A stretch of 64,000 bases of DNA from an uncultured Elusimicrobia bacterium. Lineage in GTDB: Bacteria; Elusimicrobiota; Elusimicrobia; 2-01-FULL-59-12. Shown in pieces: positions 22,888 to 28,917 of this stretch. The notes below the pieces were generated by a model that saw only the letters and a list, made by a program, of their open reading frames with translations, had not been told where the DNA came from and did not search any database. Within the stretch, counting starts at the first letter, position 1. Every line of letters begins with the position of its first letter. The stretch covers positions 1,472,001-1,536,000 of the forward strand of contig OY969767.1 in NCBI GenBank assembly GCA_963702895.1, given 5' to 3'. The position numbers and the translations under genes were made by a program.

Positions 22888-23102
22888 GTTACCCCGGCGA
22901 AAGCCGGCCCTCCACACATCCGGCGGGCCGTCCGCCCTGCCGTGTGGCGGACGCGGTCTATCATGTTACGACGTAAATGATGGATCCGACACACTACAGT
23001 CGGACGCCTGTTGTGTGGCGTCCCGGCTTTCGCCGGGATGACGGACTAAAAAGTGCACGATGCTCAGACGATAGGATAAACTCAAGTGAAGATTCCCGGT
23101 TA
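22888..23102. repeat. REP-like doublet (22888-23042) with two nested dyads and a right MITE-like tail ending CCCGGTTA
   Basis: GTTACCCCGGCGAAAGCCGG...CCCGGCTTTCGCCGGGATGAC-GGACTAAAAAGT...GATTCCCGGTTA. Confidence 0.88.
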
Positions 23103-24062
23103 ATCGAGACGCGCTTTGAAGCGCCAGCCGATCGTGACACGGTGGGTCGTTCCGAGGTCGCCGAGAGGGATGAATGCGTAGTCTAAGGAAAGCTGTTTCT
23201 GGCGAAGCCCCACGCCTGCGCTAAAATCGGAAAGCCCCCCCAAGTCGGGCCGCGAGAAAGCATAACGATAACCCAGGCGGAAGGAGAAGAAGCGCCGCGG
23301 GTTGACCTCGATGCCGGCATCAATTTCTCCTTCCATGTCCATCCGTTTGACGTAATCCAAGGCCAGCAGCCACTGCGCGAAGGGTTGCCCGGAGATGCCT
23401 GCCCGAAAGGTCCACGGCAGCTTGACGGAGGCTTCCGAGAAGCGTGACGCAAAACCAAGATTCAATAAGGAAGCACCCAGATTCCAAGCATGCTCATCTT
23501 GGAGTTGATACATGATCCCGGCATCAACGGCCCCGGCGTTGGAGGACGCGTCCGCGAGCGATTCACGGATAAACTTGACGGTCCCCCCCACTTGAAGGTC
23601 GTCGGCGACAGGGCCTGCGCCGGAAAGGCCCAGGGACAGGTCATACGTGGATAAATCACCCGTTTCGCTAAAGCCTTCCCCTGTGTCGAGGCCCGTCGCG
23701 ACCGTGCGAGTGATCTGTCCGACCCGCAGGTAGTTCGCAGAAAGGCCCCAGCTGAGCGTCTTGTCACGGCCCGCTTGACCCAAGAGCACCGCCTCTTGAA
23801 CCGTGTCTTCAACATAGCTCAGGTGCTGGAAAGAAATTTGAGAAGCGATCATCGTGGCGAGACCCGCTGGGTTGTAGGGGAGCCCCTGGACATCATTCGG
23901 GACGGATGTAAAGGCTTGGCCCATGGCGGTGGAGCGCGCGCCAACGGGGATATTAAGGAACGCGAAACTGGACGTTCCGCTCGTCTGATCGGCTGGCAAA
24001 GAAGGGGTGACCACGGCGAGGCAGGCGGCCACGCCACAGGCCAAACGGAAACGGGACCTCAT
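23100..24062 (-). CDS. PorV/PorQ (UPF0164) family outer-membrane protein
   Basis: FLNIPVGARSTAMGQAF, YNPAGL, GDLGTTHRVTIGWRF; signal peptide. Confidence 0.88.
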   Translation of the reverse strand: MRSRFRLACGVAACLAVVTPSLPADQTSGTSSFAFLNIPVGARSTAMGQAFTSVPNDVQGLPYNPAGLATMIASQISFQHLSYVEDTVQEAVLLGQAGRDKTLSWGLSANYLRVGQITRTVATGLDTGEGFSETGDLSTYDLSLGLSGAGPVADDLQVGGTVKFIRESLADASSNAGAVDAGIMYQLQDEHAWNLGASLLNLGFASRFSEASVKLPWTFRAGISGQPFAQWLLALDYVKRMDMEGEIDAGIEVNPRRFFSFRLGYRYAFSRPDLGGLSDFSAGVGLRQKQLSLDYAFIPLGDLGTTHRVTIGWRFKARLD

Positions 24063-24228
24063 GAAGGGAAACAACCCATGCGCGGTTTATGTATATCAGG
24101 GGGGATGGCGCGCGGTCAATACAAAACTGACCTTAAAAAGAAAGGAATTTTCGAGCAAAAGAGCATCGCCAAACGGTGCAAAGCGAGGGTGCGGATGGTG
24201 TGTGGGGCCTATGACGCTCGAAGGGTTC

Positions 24229-24756
24229 TCAAAAGGCCCCCCATTTCTGTTTGCCGGGGATCCAGTAGCTCGGGCAGATAAAACGTAAGGCGCGCGCGAA
24301 TTTCTGAGCCCGCTCGAGAGAGGCCTCTCGTTTTGCGACGGCTCCCGCGAGGTCCTTCGAGAAGAGTTGGTGGAGATACTCTTCAGCCGCCTGCTTCCGT
24401 TCCGCTTCCGTCTTGAATTGCTTCCGAATGGCCGCGAGCTCCCCGACATCAAGCCAAACGCCTCCACAGGCGGGGCAATCATCGATCTCAATTTCTTGCC
24501 GCACCGTAAAATAATGCCGGAAAAGCGTCTGATCCTGACATCGGGGACACAGCCGTTTGAGATTATGGTTTACGGGGATACGGTCGTGTGGGCTCATGTT
24601 CAGCAAAGGCTCACCAAGAGATTCATGTGCTTCATCCACTTTCTTGAGTTCAAAGTTGTCCAACCAAATACCTCCACATCTTTGATCACAGATATCGACC
24701 GCTAAATCGGCTTGCTGCATCTCTTTTAGCACTCCATCACATGCGGGACATTTCAT
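24229..24756 (-). CDS. Tandem zf-TFIIB zinc-ribbon protein
   Basis: CPAC...CDQRCGGIWLD and CPRC...CPACGGVWLDVGEL. Confidence 0.88.
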   Translation of the reverse strand: MKCPACDGVLKEMQQADLAVDICDQRCGGIWLDNFELKKVDEAHESLGEPLLNMSPHDRIPVNHNLKRLCPRCQDQTLFRHYFTVRQEIEIDDCPACGGVWLDVGELAAIRKQFKTEAERKQAAEEYLHQLFSKDLAGAVAKREASLERAQKFARALRFICPSYWIPGKQKWGAF

Positions 24757-24795
24757 GAGCGTGCCTCCTTGTTAGTTTCAAACTGAACGACCTGC

Positions 24796-24875
24796 TAGCC
24801 GGGAAACTGCCGTTGCCGTCAGCCGGCCCTCCACACATCCGGCGCCCGCCACACGTCTAGCGAGGCCTCGCCGGA
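24796..24875. repeat. Internally deleted copy of the MITE/REP element
   Basis: TAGCCGGGAAACTGCCGTTGCCGTCA-GCCGGCCCTCCACACATCCGGCG. Confidence 0.75.
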
Positions 24876-24878
24876 TCA

Positions 24879-25241
24879 TCAGAAAATCCGGACACGGCGC
24901 TTGTGAAAATCAATCGTGAGCCGGCGCTCTTCCAATAAGCGTGTCCCAATCAAAATATCTTTTGCATGCGAAGCGACGGTATCGACTTCCTGGGTTCTCC
25001 CAAACCATCGAATTCGTCCGACAAATACTTTTTCTCGAACCACATCGCCGGTCGCAATCTCGTACGACTCATATCCGATCCAACGCCAACCCAATCGTTG
25101 AATCAGAGATTCAGGCAGACTTAACGTGCCGTTGAATCCTGTGTCGATGACGGCGGAGTGAGATTGAGAACGATTCGTGGAAAACAGAAGGAAGATTCGG
25201 ACGACGGGCTCACCACGGGAATTAACATGCCCTTTGAGCAT
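24879..25241 (-). CDS. Clan AA aspartic protease (AF_0612-like)
   Basis: AVIDTGFNGTLSLP ... ILIGTRLL. Confidence 0.88.
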   Translation of the reverse strand: MLKGHVNSRGEPVVRIFLLFSTNRSQSHSAVIDTGFNGTLSLPESLIQRLGWRWIGYESYEIATGDVVREKVFVGRIRWFGRTQEVDTVASHAKDILIGTRLLEERRLTIDFHKRRVRIF

Positions 25242-25484
25242 CTACCCGTGTCGGCGCAATTTATGAACGGCAGGATAGCCGATCCGGAAAAAGTCAAATA
25301 CTTTGTTTGGAAATGCCGTCATCGCGTGCCGGGCGGCTTCCAGGACATCCTTTCCCAAAAAGTACTGTCCAGAATCGGGCTCGACAGCGACAACCTGTCC
25401 TTTATGATCGGCGAGCAGGCGCCGTTCCACTTGGCGGAAGAGTTTAGAGGCTTTTCGAAATTTCTGGAGTTCTTTTTTGCTCAC
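25242..25484 (-). CDS. Small DUF5678-like partner protein of the aspartic protease
   Basis: KGQVVAVEPDSGQYFLG...RIG; abuts the protease gene. Confidence 0.7.
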   Translation of the reverse strand: MSKKELQKFRKASKLFRQVERRLLADHKGQVVAVEPDSGQYFLGKDVLEAARHAMTAFPNKVFDFFRIGYPAVHKLRRHG

Positions 25485-25681: not shown

Positions 25682-25769
25682 AGCCGGGGATCGGATTTCC
25701 CGCCACTACACCGTTGGCGGGTCCGCCAGAGCTTCGGTGGCGGAGAACCGACGACCACCTGTTTACGAA
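25682..25769 (-). pseudogene. Orphan 3' half of tRNA-Thr(CGT) with a 46-bp insertion in the T-loop
   Basis: TTCGTAA-ACAGG-TGGTC-GTCGG-TTC[46 nt]AAAT-CCGAT-CCCCGGC-T. Confidence 0.8.
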
Positions 25770-25858
25770 TTCTTTGGGACGCCACTCACGATCATTTGGA
25801 ATCCAATTGATTACAAATATGAAAACCTAAATTCTCGGTTTTCCGCCGCAGCCAGGAT

Positions 25859-25967
25859 TCCAAGATTCTTCCAACATTACTCCAAGATTTGGTCGACGTC
25901 ATTCCAAGAAAAGCCTGATCTTGTACTACAAAAGAAATCCAAGATCATCGGATACAGATTCCAAGTT
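25859..25967 (+). repeat. Phased TCCAAGAT-like direct repeats
   Basis: Copies at 25859, 25870, 25881, 25903, 25938, 25960. Confidence 0.6.
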
Positions 25968-26511
25968 ATTGTCGGAGTGTCATCCCGGATTGATCGGCGC
26001 GGACAAACATCCCCATCACATCCAAATCGGAGACGTTTAAATCTTCATCCTTTGGCGGAAGGGTCTGGGTTCCGAGAGGCCGCGTATAGGACAGAATGTA
26101 GTTCAAGAATTCGCCTGAAGGACTCCGCCATTGTCCTGACCACGTCAGGATTACGAGTTGTCTGTTATTAGCGGAAACAATTTTCCGTTTCCATTTCCAC
26201 AATGTGACCGGCGGTTCTTTTGATTTAACTTGGTCTGTCTTAAGCGCCTGCCACCTGTCCCGCGCCAGCGCATTGGACAACTCTGCGATCACATCAGAGG
26301 CCGGATAGCTCGCCTTCACTCTATAAATCACCTGATCAGGTTGCCATCCATTTGGATATTGGCACTCCAAGTACTCGACGTCGGTGGCTCCCTTGACAGC
26401 GAAAAGCGATTTCGGATGATCTTGCGGGTTGGGATGGCATTCCAGAGCGTACGTCAGTTGAATGAGCGCGGTGAGGAGAGCAGCGGCAAGAAGACAGCCG
26501 ATTCGACTCAT
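25966..26511 (-). CDS. Hypothetical secreted protein
   Basis: 181-aa ORF with an N-terminal signal-peptide-like segment. Confidence 0.7.
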   Translation of the reverse strand: MSRIGCLLAAALLTALIQLTYALECHPNPQDHPKSLFAVKGATDVEYLECQYPNGWQPDQVIYRVKASYPASDVIAELSNALARDRWQALKTDQVKSKEPPVTLWKWKRKIVSANNRQLVILTWSGQWRSPSGEFLNYILSYTRPLGTQTLPPKDEDLNVSDLDVMGMFVRADQSGMTLRQ

Positions 26512-26661
26512 TATTCCGGCCTCCTATTCCTAGAAGAGGTATTCCAAGGCCATTGCGTCGTAATTGTCACATCGGTTTCGACATACGTTGCGCTAGCCAC
26601 GGGAGACGCCTCAAATTCTGGGAAATTTTGCTGATAAGCGCCACTTCCCACAAAAAAATTA

Positions 26662-26744
26662 AGCCGGGGAAGGGACTCCCCGCCACTGAGTCTCTGGCGT
26701 TCCCGCCAATGCCGTAGTGGCGGGGAACCCACGACCTTCTCTTT
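26662..26744 (-). pseudogene. Second orphan tRNA-Thr-like 3' half with a 46-bp T-loop insertion
   Basis: GAAGGTC-GTGGG-TTC[46 nt]GAGT-CCCTT-CCCCGGC-T. Confidence 0.7.
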
Positions 26745-26823
26745 CCGCCCCCATCCTAATTTCGTAAACCTCAAAACTCTTTACCGTCTGGGGTCGTCTG
26801 ATGGTGGTTCCCATCGTAAAATA

Positions 26824-26896
26824 AGCCGAGGATCGGACTTGAACCGACAACATCTCCCTTACGAAGGGAGTGCTCTACCAATTGAGCTACCTCGGC
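26824..26896 (-). tRNA. tRNA-Thr(CGT), no encoded CCA
   Basis: GCCGAGG acceptor stem, GCTC/GAGC D-arm, CTCCC-TTCGTAA-GGGAG anticodon arm, GTCGG-TTCAAGT-CCGAT T-arm. Confidence 0.96.
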
Positions 26897-27128: not shown

Positions 27129-27425
27129 TTATCGCCGAGCAGATTCCCAGCGCTTAGCGGCCAGCGTAAAAGCATGGCGATGTTTTGACCAATCATGCAA
27201 GATCGCTGGATCAAAATCAGCGCCATTGGGCCACACAAGCGTGTGAACTTCGCGGTCAAGGCGAACTCGATTAAAGACCCTTGGATTTTTTAATGGCCCG
27301 TAAAGGTCCCCAGCCAGAACAGGCTGGAAATCAATTGTTCGCTTGCATTGATCATCGAACGATATTTCCAAGGTGTAAGGACCTGCCTTTTTAAACGATC
27401 GAATTTTATAAATGGAATGTTTCAT
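27129..27425 (-). CDS. DUF2442 protein (putative DhiA-like antitoxin)
   Basis: LEISFDD...GDLYGPLKNPRVF...TLVWPNGADFDP. Confidence 0.88.
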   Translation of the reverse strand: MKHSIYKIRSFKKAGPYTLEISFDDQCKRTIDFQPVLAGDLYGPLKNPRVFNRVRLDREVHTLVWPNGADFDPAILHDWSKHRHAFTLAAKRWESARR

Positions 27426-27645
27426 AATCGCCTCACTTAAGCGGTTTAATAGGCTCTGGCTTCCGCCCAGCTTGCAATCTCTGCCAGTCCAGCATCAATT
27501 CTTTCCTATGAAGTTCTGCCCATGCCTCGACTAACCGACGCTGTCTTTTTGGGAGAGAGCCGGATATTGTTTCAATCGGATCAATCCCATAAACAGCCAC
27601 GTGCTCCTGATAATAGGCGTGAAAATGTGCTTTATGGTGTCGACC

Positions 27646-28917
27646 CACTGGTGTCCGGTAAAAGTTAGCCGAAGCTTAGCCATAGCTGAGGCTCCATAGT
27701 TCGAACTTTTGAAAGATTCTTTTCGGGCATACGCAATAGATCGATGAGACTGAGCCGGTCGAGAAGGGTATTCTGAACCAACCGGTGCAGCAAGAACAGC
27801 GAACGCTGGAATCGTGTCTGGAACTTGATGTAGGCCAGGAGCAGGAAATAGCACAAGGCCACCCAGATTTGGGTAAAGACGGCATTTTTGGAAGTGCCGA
27901 GGAACGTTTTGATTTTGAGATGCTGCTTGAGCCACTTGAAGAACAGCTCGATCTGCCAACGGGCCTTATAGATTTGGGCAATGGTGAAAGCGGCCAGTTT
28001 GAAGTTATTGGTCATAAACTGGTAAGTGATGGCGGTGTCGGCATCGTAGTAGCCGATGAGTCGTAAAGGTTTCTTGTATTTCGTCTTGGTGCGTGGGCCT
28101 GTAAGCTCAATGGTGCGATCGTACAACAGGCCGTTTTTTAAGGGAATTTCTTGCTGTCCGGTGATGCGGCAGGTGAGGTTGTCTTTGGCACGGGTGACGA
28201 AGAAAGAGCCGAGATCGTCGATCTGACGGTACCAGCCGTAATCCATGTAGCCGCGGTCGAAGACATAGATGCTGTCCGGTTCTAAGGGAAAAAGACGTTT
28301 GGCGGCATGGTCGAAGCACTTTCCATCGGTGATGACGGCAAAGGAAGGGATTTGGCCACGCAAGTCCAGTTGGCAATGCAGTTTGATCGCTCCTTTGGCC
28401 TGTTTAAAGGTGGCCCAAGGGAAAAGGTTCAGGCACAGTTCCATGTTCGTGGAATCGAAGCAGGTCACTTTGTGTTTAAAACGGAACTGATGCTTAGGCG
28501 CGATGGCTTGGCACCGATCCAGCAGGTGATAGAAGAGCTTTTCCATGATGCGCCAGTCGCGCCCAGCGTTAGCGTCAGCCAGGGTAGAACGTTTCACTGG
28601 CGGCAGCCCCAAGTGATAGAGCTTGGGTTGTTGCGTGCCTAAAGCCGTCTGGATGTCACGCAGGCTTGTTTTACCGCTGGCCTGAGCATAGAGGAGTGTC
28701 GTGAGCTGGTTCCAAGTCGAGAATTTTTTAACGTAGGCGTCGCCGCCGAAGCCAGAAACGGCTTGGTCGAACTGATGTCGTGGTAAAAGGAGAAGCAGTT
28801 GGTTCATTATGGTGTTAGAATGCATGAGCGAAATCCTCCCTCGGACAGAATGGTTTGCTTGGTCGCAATCATTCTACCGAACCAGGGGGATTTCGCATTT
28901 TTAACCGGACACGAGTG
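27646..28917 (-). mobile_element. IS4-family insertion sequence, copy 1 (1272 bp)
   Basis: TIRs CACTGGTGTCCGGT / CACTCGTGTCCGGT; 9-bp TSD GTGTCGACC. Confidence 0.96.
27665..28825 (-). CDS. IS4-family DDE transposase (DUF4372 + DDE)
   Basis: SLRDI, DST, VFDRGY, YKARWQIELFFK (YREK motif). Confidence 0.96.
   Translation of the reverse strand: MHSNTIMNQLLLLLPRHQFDQAVSGFGGDAYVKKFSTWNQLTTLLYAQASGKTSLRDIQTALGTQQPKLYHLGLPPVKRSTLADANAGRDWRIMEKLFYHLLDRCQAIAPKHQFRFKHKVTCFDSTNMELCLNLFPWATFKQAKGAIKLHCQLDLRGQIPSFAVITDGKCFDHAAKRLFPLEPDSIYVFDRGYMDYGWYRQIDDLGSFFVTRAKDNLTCRITGQQEIPLKNGLLYDRTIELTGPRTKTKYKKPLRLIGYYDADTAITYQFMTNNFKLAAFTIAQIYKARWQIELFFKWLKQHLKIKTFLGTSKNAVFTQIWVALCYFLLLAYIKFQTRFQRSLFLLHRLVQNTLLDRLSLIDLLRMPEKNLSKVRTMEPQLWLSFG

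Follow-up and report, generated by a model that had tools for sequence, protein, structure and literature searches.

The locus analyzed here raises the question how two similar 46-nt hairpin elements came to interrupt two neighboring tRNA-Thr relics at the same T-loop position and in opposite orientations. The window, i.e., the whole stretch of DNA analyzed, comprises 64,000 nt (positions 1472001-1536000 of contig C1) of the source genome G000 (phylum Elusimicrobiota), a single contig of 2.72 Mb. Two sequencing runs consisted of contigs only; they showed no joint, and neither insert was covered by contigs of this organism. A sequence-only reading had located both inserts correctly, letter by letter, and had proposed a tiny non-autonomous element which targets the T-loop and was inserted twice independently.

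Two inserts in tRNA-Thr relics

Both inserts split minus-strand tRNA-Thr-like 3' halves at GGTTC^RA with zero duplicated bases (for copy 1, m=4 and p+q-m=0 in the doublet parser), and both relics lack a 5' half (Table 1). The two copies are identical at 37 of 46 positions when one is inverted, which reproduced the earlier count, and at 30/46 in the same orientation. They had been described as being made of two hairpins each. This applies to copy 1, which folds into two hairpins on either strand, and not to copy 2, for which one long hairpin was predicted rather than two. Folding z-scores of the inserts ranged from -3.8 to -5.1. A tRNA intron was considered and rejected: none of the 47 working tRNA genes of the source genome is interrupted, including the tRNA-Thr gene beside the relics that had been called intact, and every amino acid has an uninterrupted gene. 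The view that such inserts are kept in dead tRNA copies was supported.

Table 1. Features of the locus (window positions) and one further gene of the source genome (contig positions)
Feature	Position	Strand	Remarks
UPF0164-family gene, conserved boundary	23100..24074	-	
Three small ORFs behind relic 1	24229..25484	-	80 aa (no assignment); 120 aa; 175 aa with TFIIB-type zinc ribbons
Relic 1, tRNA-Thr(CGT) 3' half from the anticodon loop onward	25682..25769	-	
Doublet copy 1, long-loop class	25699..25744	.	Leading monomer in tRNA sense of GA type; feet of both hairpins pair; target not duplicated
Conserved non-coding arm ahead of relic 1	25770..25990	-	Five 9-nt direct repeats, spacing 22, 22, 35, 22 bp
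181-aa cargo ORF	25966..26511	-	Pfam / NCBIfam: no match
Relic 2, tRNA-Thr-like 3' half, anticodon side to acceptor end	26662..26749	-	100 bp behind the working gene
Doublet copy 2, long-loop class	26679..26724	.	Leading monomer in tRNA sense of AC type; foot of one hairpin broken; target not duplicated
Working tRNA-Thr(CGT), without insert	26824..26896	-	Identical in G353 and G366
GIY-YIG gene with internal stop	G000:C1:580611-580871		Between tRNA-Ile and tRNA-Ala

The window contains no GIY-YIG gene and none of the four tyrosine recombinase matches (PF00589) of the source genome. A relative of the cargo ORF was found in only one of 400 other genomes of the phylum, as a distant match where no tRNA gene was called, and the 120-aa ORF behind relic 1 resembles clan AA aspartic proteases with a score under the cut-off. 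The tRNA-Thr gene has as close upstream neighbors a DUF2442 gene, itself preceded by a small partner (27129-27648), and an IS4-like DDE transposase with DUF4372 (27665-28825), both on the minus strand.

Origin of the relics and timing of the insertions

Integrase islands of the Islander type leave displaced tRNA fragments. Relic 1 resembles such a scar: it is a 3' fragment starting at the anticodon loop, it follows cargo and a conserved arm with phased repeats, and it matches a tRNA allele. Without its insert it agrees at 40 of 42 positions with the working tRNA-Thr(CGT) of the relatives G258, G403, and G405, compared to 33/42 for that of its own genome. Unlike in Islander-type islands, no integrase gene lies inside the islet; furthermore, an island explains the relic, not the plug. 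The orthologous locus of G403 consists of the tRNA, other cargo, a homologous 240-bp arm, an empty relic, and the UPF0164 gene, and no integrase was found by inspection among the ORFs of this islet. We infer that the arm ahead of relic 1 is the attachment-site arm of a decayed integrative islet and relic 1 the scar left by an islet whose crossover took place in the anticodon loop and whose integrase has since been lost. The locus of G353, like that of G403, is shown to be orthologous by the conserved UPF0164 boundary gene; here the same arm lies ahead of another relic, whose plug has the orientation of copy 2, and the three small ORFs are absent between relic and boundary gene. G366 has a tRNA-Thr stub whose T-loop is plugged at that very site by a different hairpin family.

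As relic 1 appears as an integration scar with an empty orthologue in a relative, the plugs most likely came later and separately. The empty relic of G403 could instead have lost its plug by precise excision or gene conversion. Relic 2 without its insert is alike to the working gene of its own genome at 28/42 positions, its best match (35/42) being the tRNA-Thr(CGT) of a relative. The two relics without inserts agree at just 31/42 positions, and one T-stem pair is exchanged between them in a compensated manner (C-G to G-C); hence, they point to different once-working tRNA alleles.

The sequence-only reading had named as its alternative the duplication of one plugged relic followed by inversion of the insert in place. 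Two copies which lie 1 kb apart and agree at 37 of 46 positions would fit this course of events. The agreement is, though, the family average: pairs among 84 copies share 36.9 ± 2.4 of 46 positions, and 56% of the pairs share at least 37, so that the two copies are not close kin. Their nearest kin are doublets in other genomes (42/46 for copy 1 and 41/46 for copy 2), both orientations of the doublet are present at T-loops, and the relics descend from different alleles as described above. Duplication with inversion was therefore rejected as extremely unlikely, and two independent insertions of a small non-autonomous element were supported. That the doublet family is real and that the insertions at this locus were separate and late, we hold with high confidence.

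A family of head-to-head hairpin doublets

A doublet consists of two monomers placed head to head, each of the form NN-CGCC-loop-GGCG-N'N'; it is REP-like and non-autonomous. Genomes were searched with a parser for the pattern monomer, middle, inverted monomer, and five third-order Markov simulations served as control. The source genome contains 95 doublets as compared to 0-1 per simulation; the hairpin dyad first noticed at the two inserts thus exists in many further copies. A long class (loop of 10-11 nt, consensus ACT-RM-NN-C-N-T-N) accounts for 38 of them, including copies 1 and 2, and a short class (loop of 8 nt) for 56; one further match is mixed long/short and probably due to chance. 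In 84 copies with a four-base middle from other genomes, 166 of 168 hairpin feet are paired (shuffled mean 74, maximum 99), and pairing is near-perfect over at least five foot types. The ends read CGCCAC inward on both strands, and these terminal inverted repeats are shared with classical DDE-mobilized MITEs. Unlike in such MITEs, the target duplication is not fixed and amounts to 0, 1, or 2 bases, mirrored inside the element. The lack of a target duplication noted earlier holds for both inserts and also for most of the long-loop class; it is not a general family trait, as many members show a duplication of 1-2 bases.

The long class was found in 8 of 150 other genomes of the phylum and in seven of the ten genomes of the family. 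With the strict doublet pattern, the short class was found in none of the 150 genomes; it is represented by single cases in close kin and by 112 stretches in metagenomes. In keeping with the phylum of the source genome, titled genome matches to the repeat pattern belonged to Elusimicrobiota in 58 of 80 cases and to Omnitrophota in one; the 21 matches outside these phyla behaved as chance, their feet being mostly unpaired. One strict long-class pattern gave no match in viral contigs. The ORFs flanking the copies of other genomes are mostly housekeeping genes. A third doublet of the window (22987-23020), of the short class and with a two-base middle, lies inside an SRM-like hairpin end just past a methyltransferase gene.

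Landing sites

Forty-seven of the 95 doublets lie at most 1.2 kb from a tRNA gene, in zones which make up 3.3% of the source genome (p about 1e-43; tandem copies are not independent). Conversely, 34 of the 47 tRNA genes have a monomer within 500 bp, compared to 4% of random windows. The T-loop motif holds 29/95 doublets (23 short, 6 long), all of them near tRNA genes. The targeting of the TpsiC loop proposed earlier is therefore evident as a strong share, but not as exclusivity: only 6 of the 38 long-class doublets of the source genome sit in an intact T-loop motif, and further landing sites are D-arms and anticodon loops of relics and, for the long class, also short tandem repeats between housekeeping genes. 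The 48 doublets far from tRNA genes were found in short tandem repeats and other hairpin repeats (flanks judged by eye). A strict census by eye of spare T-arms outside working genes yielded 24 plugged by hairpins and four empty ones; 12 further matches were excluded as due to chance or to short duplications. As many as three separate plugs were found in one relic, and lone monomers occur in relics, too.

The bases outside blunt long-class inserts are biased, with T at position 1 in 6/180, A at position 2 in 127/180, and a purine at position 3 in 144/180 cases. This bias describes a loose palindrome which TTC^GAA fits. TTCRA occurs 13,152 times in the genome; hence, sequence alone does not explain the tRNA bias. 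Targeting of hairpin loops received no support from a crude folding test (54/130 rebuilt empty sites vs 257/600 random and 206/599 swapped sites).

Additional observations were made at individual sites. At L123 (G000:C1:1812700-1814200), a near-full dead tRNA-Asn copy with three separate plugs lies upstream of tRNA-Asn, and two tandem GIY-YIG units, their reading frames ending inside a plug, lie downstream. Next to a tyrosine integrase which lies 15 kb from tRNA-Ser(TGA), G000:C1:2516550-2517500 holds two tRNA pieces: a 3' piece of tRNA-Ser is empty, and the other piece is plugged three times. tRNA-Ala(GGC) is immediately followed by a long tetranucleotide repeat, (TCTA)n/(TCCA)n, at G000:C1:1700700-1700830. 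The sole tRNA-Arg for CGY codons (G000:C1:2042520-2042595) has the anticodon GCG, and no ACG gene was called. Another repeat family with CTTCGG-type loops hosts long-class doublets in L238, L260, L276, L278, L279, and L281; these doublets have a two-base middle, lie inside the loops, and duplicate TC.

The middle of the doublet mirrors its ends

When the two ends of a doublet are joined and reverse-complemented, the sequence of its middle is obtained, and target bases that were duplicated are part of this match. A six-base middle goes along with a two-base target duplication, and its extra pair reads as the reverse complement of the duplicated bases. This mirror rule held for 17 of 20 non-redundant six-base middles in the genome set (shuffled 12.1) and for 63/73 two-base cases in the metagenome set (shuffled 38.6), with misses counted; seven of these metagenome misses are chance matches with both feet unpaired. 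For one-base cases it held in 22/25 of the metagenome set (shuffled 10.9) and in 1/4 of the genome set, and for two-base middles in 11/11. The metagenome set is not wholly independent, because one locus encodes the same protein as G353. The duplicated pair, CG or CA, equals the T-loop pair of the neighboring working tRNA in 22 of 23 cases (one locus counted twice). Copies 1 and 2 have a four-base middle and no duplication; the mirror rule is therefore silent on their target choice.

Under the mirror rule, joining the ends of one strand yields a short duplex without mismatches, bounded by a loop on either side. The rule could also arise from monomers capping two cut ends and folding back. A precedent is found in the IS200/IS605 family, where IS608 has its cleavage site chosen by pairing with hairpin-foot bases; hairpin ends and insertion without fill-in duplication are further likenesses in the accounts compared (PMC5934647; PMC8266576). 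Unlike IS608, a doublet comprises 46 bases, carries no transposase, is two-fold symmetric with the guide-like bases in its center, and occurs in both orientations at one site.

Plugs in tRNA relics also belong to a second doublet family, which has longer loops (G000:C1:813300-813670, 1652180-1652250, and 1666900-1667000; L116:1250-1350). Judged by eye in three to five cases, its middle resembles the mirrored pair with one base added (CAG for CG, TAG for CA); a scripted mirror-rule test returned no case for this family.

Candidate enzymes

The source genome encodes nine GIY-YIG matches, one Y1 fragment of 89 aa, and four tyrosine recombinases. Small GIY-YIG genes with a terminal K(S/T)GxGR motif adjoin tRNA genes in four cases; two of these form tandem units, each consisting of the gene and a plugged tRNA-Asn end, a third is flanked by a plugged tRNA-Ala 5' relic and the working tRNA-Ala, and the fourth contains an internal stop. 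One relic-linked gene is located at G000:C1:1700931-1701170 on the minus strand. The layout of relic and GIY-YIG gene recurs in G035, G023, G065, G401, G402, and G353, where the stop codon often lies inside the working tRNA gene. At L198:1150-1900 (G035), identical doublets flank a GIY-YIG gene together with a whole tRNA-Ser, and an older tRNA-Ser copy is split into 5' and 3' halves; this cassette may bring its own replacement tRNA. The relic-linked proteins are single-domain proteins of 79-86 aa which match PF01541 over the cut-off and have invariant residues Y5, Y16, R26, and E62. Their nearest solved structures are UPF0213 proteins and Slx1, and the ESM Atlas returned generic GIY-YIG clusters only.

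A monomer was found within 400 bp of 10/20 genes of the K(S/T)GxGR branch, compared to 1/24 other GIY-YIG genes and 1/20 Y1 loci; small GIY-YIG genes, listed at the outset only among the genes to look for, are thus physically linked to the element. All eight element-positive genomes among the 150 have at least four GIY-YIG matches, as against 24 of 142 others (kin are not independent). Among the metagenome doublet loci, 12/112 have a GIY-YIG ORF within their short flanks. A Pfam search of flanking ORFs in a first set (112/251) identified no Y1, integrase, or GIY-YIG domain; it covered the longest ORF on each side, so small genes were missed. Relics next to genes of the K(S/T)GxGR branch also contain other hairpin families, and nuclease and doublet may meet only because both collect at tRNA genes.

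Single-domain GIY-YIG genes of 80-100 aa located beside their own hairpin repeat are known as Ssn with NTS/SRM hairpins, and a REP/RAYT-like mobile-element origin was suggested for Ssn by Chenal et al. 2025 (PMC11893778). The main text of that study contains no occurrence of "tRNA" and shows no insertion mechanism (PMC11893778). The doublets differ from this system, as the SRM search motif matched none of the 95 doublets, whereas it does match at the two SsnA-like genes of the source genome. In a tree of 44 GIY-YIG proteins (without sequences shorter than 68 aa and one duplicate; bootstrap convergence incomplete), the relic-linked proteins fall on one side, apart from a branch supported 100/100 which holds SRM-flanked, SsnA-like genes, including the two of the source genome; this branch, taken to stand for SsnA (cd10448), was named by SRM flanks and a motif label. 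The fork joining the relic-linked proteins is supported only 97/74. Judging from position and sequence, the likeliest partner of the doublets would be a small GIY-YIG nuclease of the K(S/T)GxGR branch, apart from Ssn.

A Y1/HUH transposase had been named earlier as candidate mobilizer. The doublets resemble REP dimers, BIMEs, and REPINs with their RAYT (TnpA-REP) enzymes. These are short, GC-rich, extragenic, and non-autonomous inverted doublets of short palindromes with often unlike partners, and some REP dimers are described as inserting into specific palindromes (PMC3337134, PMC3733652, PMC8266576). A RAYT-like enzyme acting in trans would move the doublets like REPINs with the middle as pairing guide, the GIY-YIG genes being bystanders. 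Pairing of a guide with the cleavage site and circular single-stranded intermediates are described for IS608 and TnpA-REP (PMC5934647; PMC8266576), and Y1 genes exist in 5/5 element-rich relatives tested, with 2-6 matches each. However, the source genome has just the 89-aa fragment, 19 of the 20 Y1 loci of these relatives have no close monomer, and the remaining one has a single monomer about 230 bp upstream, on one side and next to a masked stretch; none of these Y1 genes is flanked by the repeats. A GTAG/GTGG tag is found at only 3 of 190 hairpin feet. In further contrast to REPs, doublet partners abut (2-6 bases), they are strongly biased to tRNA pieces, and their middle mirrors duplicated target bases, a feature absent from the REP descriptions compared. 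A Y1/HUH enzyme is therefore not the leading candidate, and we regard this explanation as improbable.

The linkage to GIY-YIG genes could also mean that the doublet is mainly an end mark of nuclease cassettes (tRNA piece with hairpin, GIY-YIG gene, and optionally a replacement tRNA) and not a free lander; the nuclease would nick beside the hairpin, the tRNA piece would supply homology, and the relics would be cassette debris. The cassettes at tRNA-Asn and tRNA-Ala in the source genome and the tRNA-Ser cassette of G035 point in this direction, and SsnA was reported to cut single strands a few bases upstream of its hairpin (PMC11893778). Against it stand the 48 doublets far from tRNA genes, the relics with up to three separate plugs, and the empty orthologue of relic 1, which stands behind an unrelated arm. 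As a full account it appears highly unlikely. Cassettes may be compatible with the dumbbell model described below, yet they leave this locus unaccounted for.

Proposed mechanism

On balance, we favor a working model in which the doublet would move as a single-stranded DNA dumbbell mobilized by the GIY-YIG branch. One strand of the doublet would be lifted out and closed into a circle of 42-46 nt, which would fold into a dumbbell, i.e., a short duplex capped by two loops. The dumbbell would then be opened at the center of one strand and joined, in either orientation, to a target nicked at a loose, TTC^RA-like consensus. Any 1-2 bases common to the target and the junction of the circle would show up as a target duplication and as its mirror image in the middle. 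The nicking enzyme might be the small single-domain nuclease of the K(S/T)GxGR branch, whose genes lie between plugged relics and working tRNA genes. Insertion into the sole copy of a tRNA would be lethal, so plugs would build up in redundant pieces, be they integration scars such as relic 1, cassettes of the nuclease itself, or duplicated stubs. The locus analyzed here would then hold two such pieces of different origin, each plugged on its own. The stronger proposal, that a GIY-YIG nuclease of about 80 residues mobilizes the 42-46 nt dumbbell, that the central pairs select or record the target, and that the system aims at tRNA genes, is made tentatively and may well prove wrong. Points against the working model are that the window lacks a GIY-YIG gene, that element-rich relatives also encode Y1 matches, and that base-pair guiding is documented for Y1/HUH enzymes (PMC5934647, PMC8266576), in contrast to GIY-YIG.

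The doublet could, instead of moving as a unit, be assembled at its site. The nuclease would cut both strands with a stagger of 0-2 bases and one monomer would be joined to each end; each monomer would fold back and copy the overhang, and the ends would be joined in the middle, so that mirror and feet are rewritten at each insertion. One rule would thereby cover staggers of 0, 1, and 2 bases as well as the near-perfect pairing over the different foot types. The monomer repertoire agrees with this course, too: 119 of 162 monomers are distinct, and pairs of doublets sharing one monomer share the partner in 0/61 long-class and 0/36 short-class cases, i.e., in none of 97 pairs, so recent copy-and-paste of whole doublets was not seen. 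Short-class partners of shared monomers are no closer than shuffled ones, one doublet among the relatives joins a long and a short monomer, and monomers occur alone in relics. The lack of recent unit copying and the mixed doublet speak against the dumbbell as the moving unit. On the other hand, the pairing of long-class monomers is not random: the two monomers of one element differ at 5.04 positions, as compared to 4.17 between elements, partners of shared monomers are closer than shuffled (3.6 vs 4.2), and the combinations are AC+GA 28, AC+AC 4, and GA+GA 3, which suggests an inherited polarity. The extra middle base of the second family, seen by eye in its few cases and not in the scripted search, does not fit either, and end joining without homology would be required. 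Assembly at the site thus seems unlikely to us, and the dumbbell is retained as working model.

Meaning of the doublet family

The doublets are real elements of the kind formed by a hairpin repeat and a small nuclease, they are not unique to this locus, and they are not introns. The literature covered, which excluded most subscription papers and all supplements, holds no account of hairpin doublets in tRNA relics; repeats of this type may be contained in the supplements of PMC11893778 and PMC3733652. The spread of REP-like repeats still awaits an explanation, and the Ssn study only suggests mobility of small GIY-YIG genes and hairpins (PMC11893778). The doublet family leaves a traceable record, namely known targets (tRNA genes), empty and filled orthologues, and a middle matching the duplicated target bases; the mechanism is therefore testable with a few oligonucleotides and one 80-residue protein.

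If dumbbells are driven by a GIY-YIG enzyme, this would be transposition by a nuclease family which is not known to have a strand-joining step. Target choice by the central bases, if true, would make it a programmable insertion system of very small size. Doublet plugs explain many split tRNA look-alikes in these uncultured bacteria, which could be mistaken for introns. If the model is true, they would also act as a self-locking device, as plugged spare tRNA ends break the homology through which tRNA-borne cassettes and islands would be lost.
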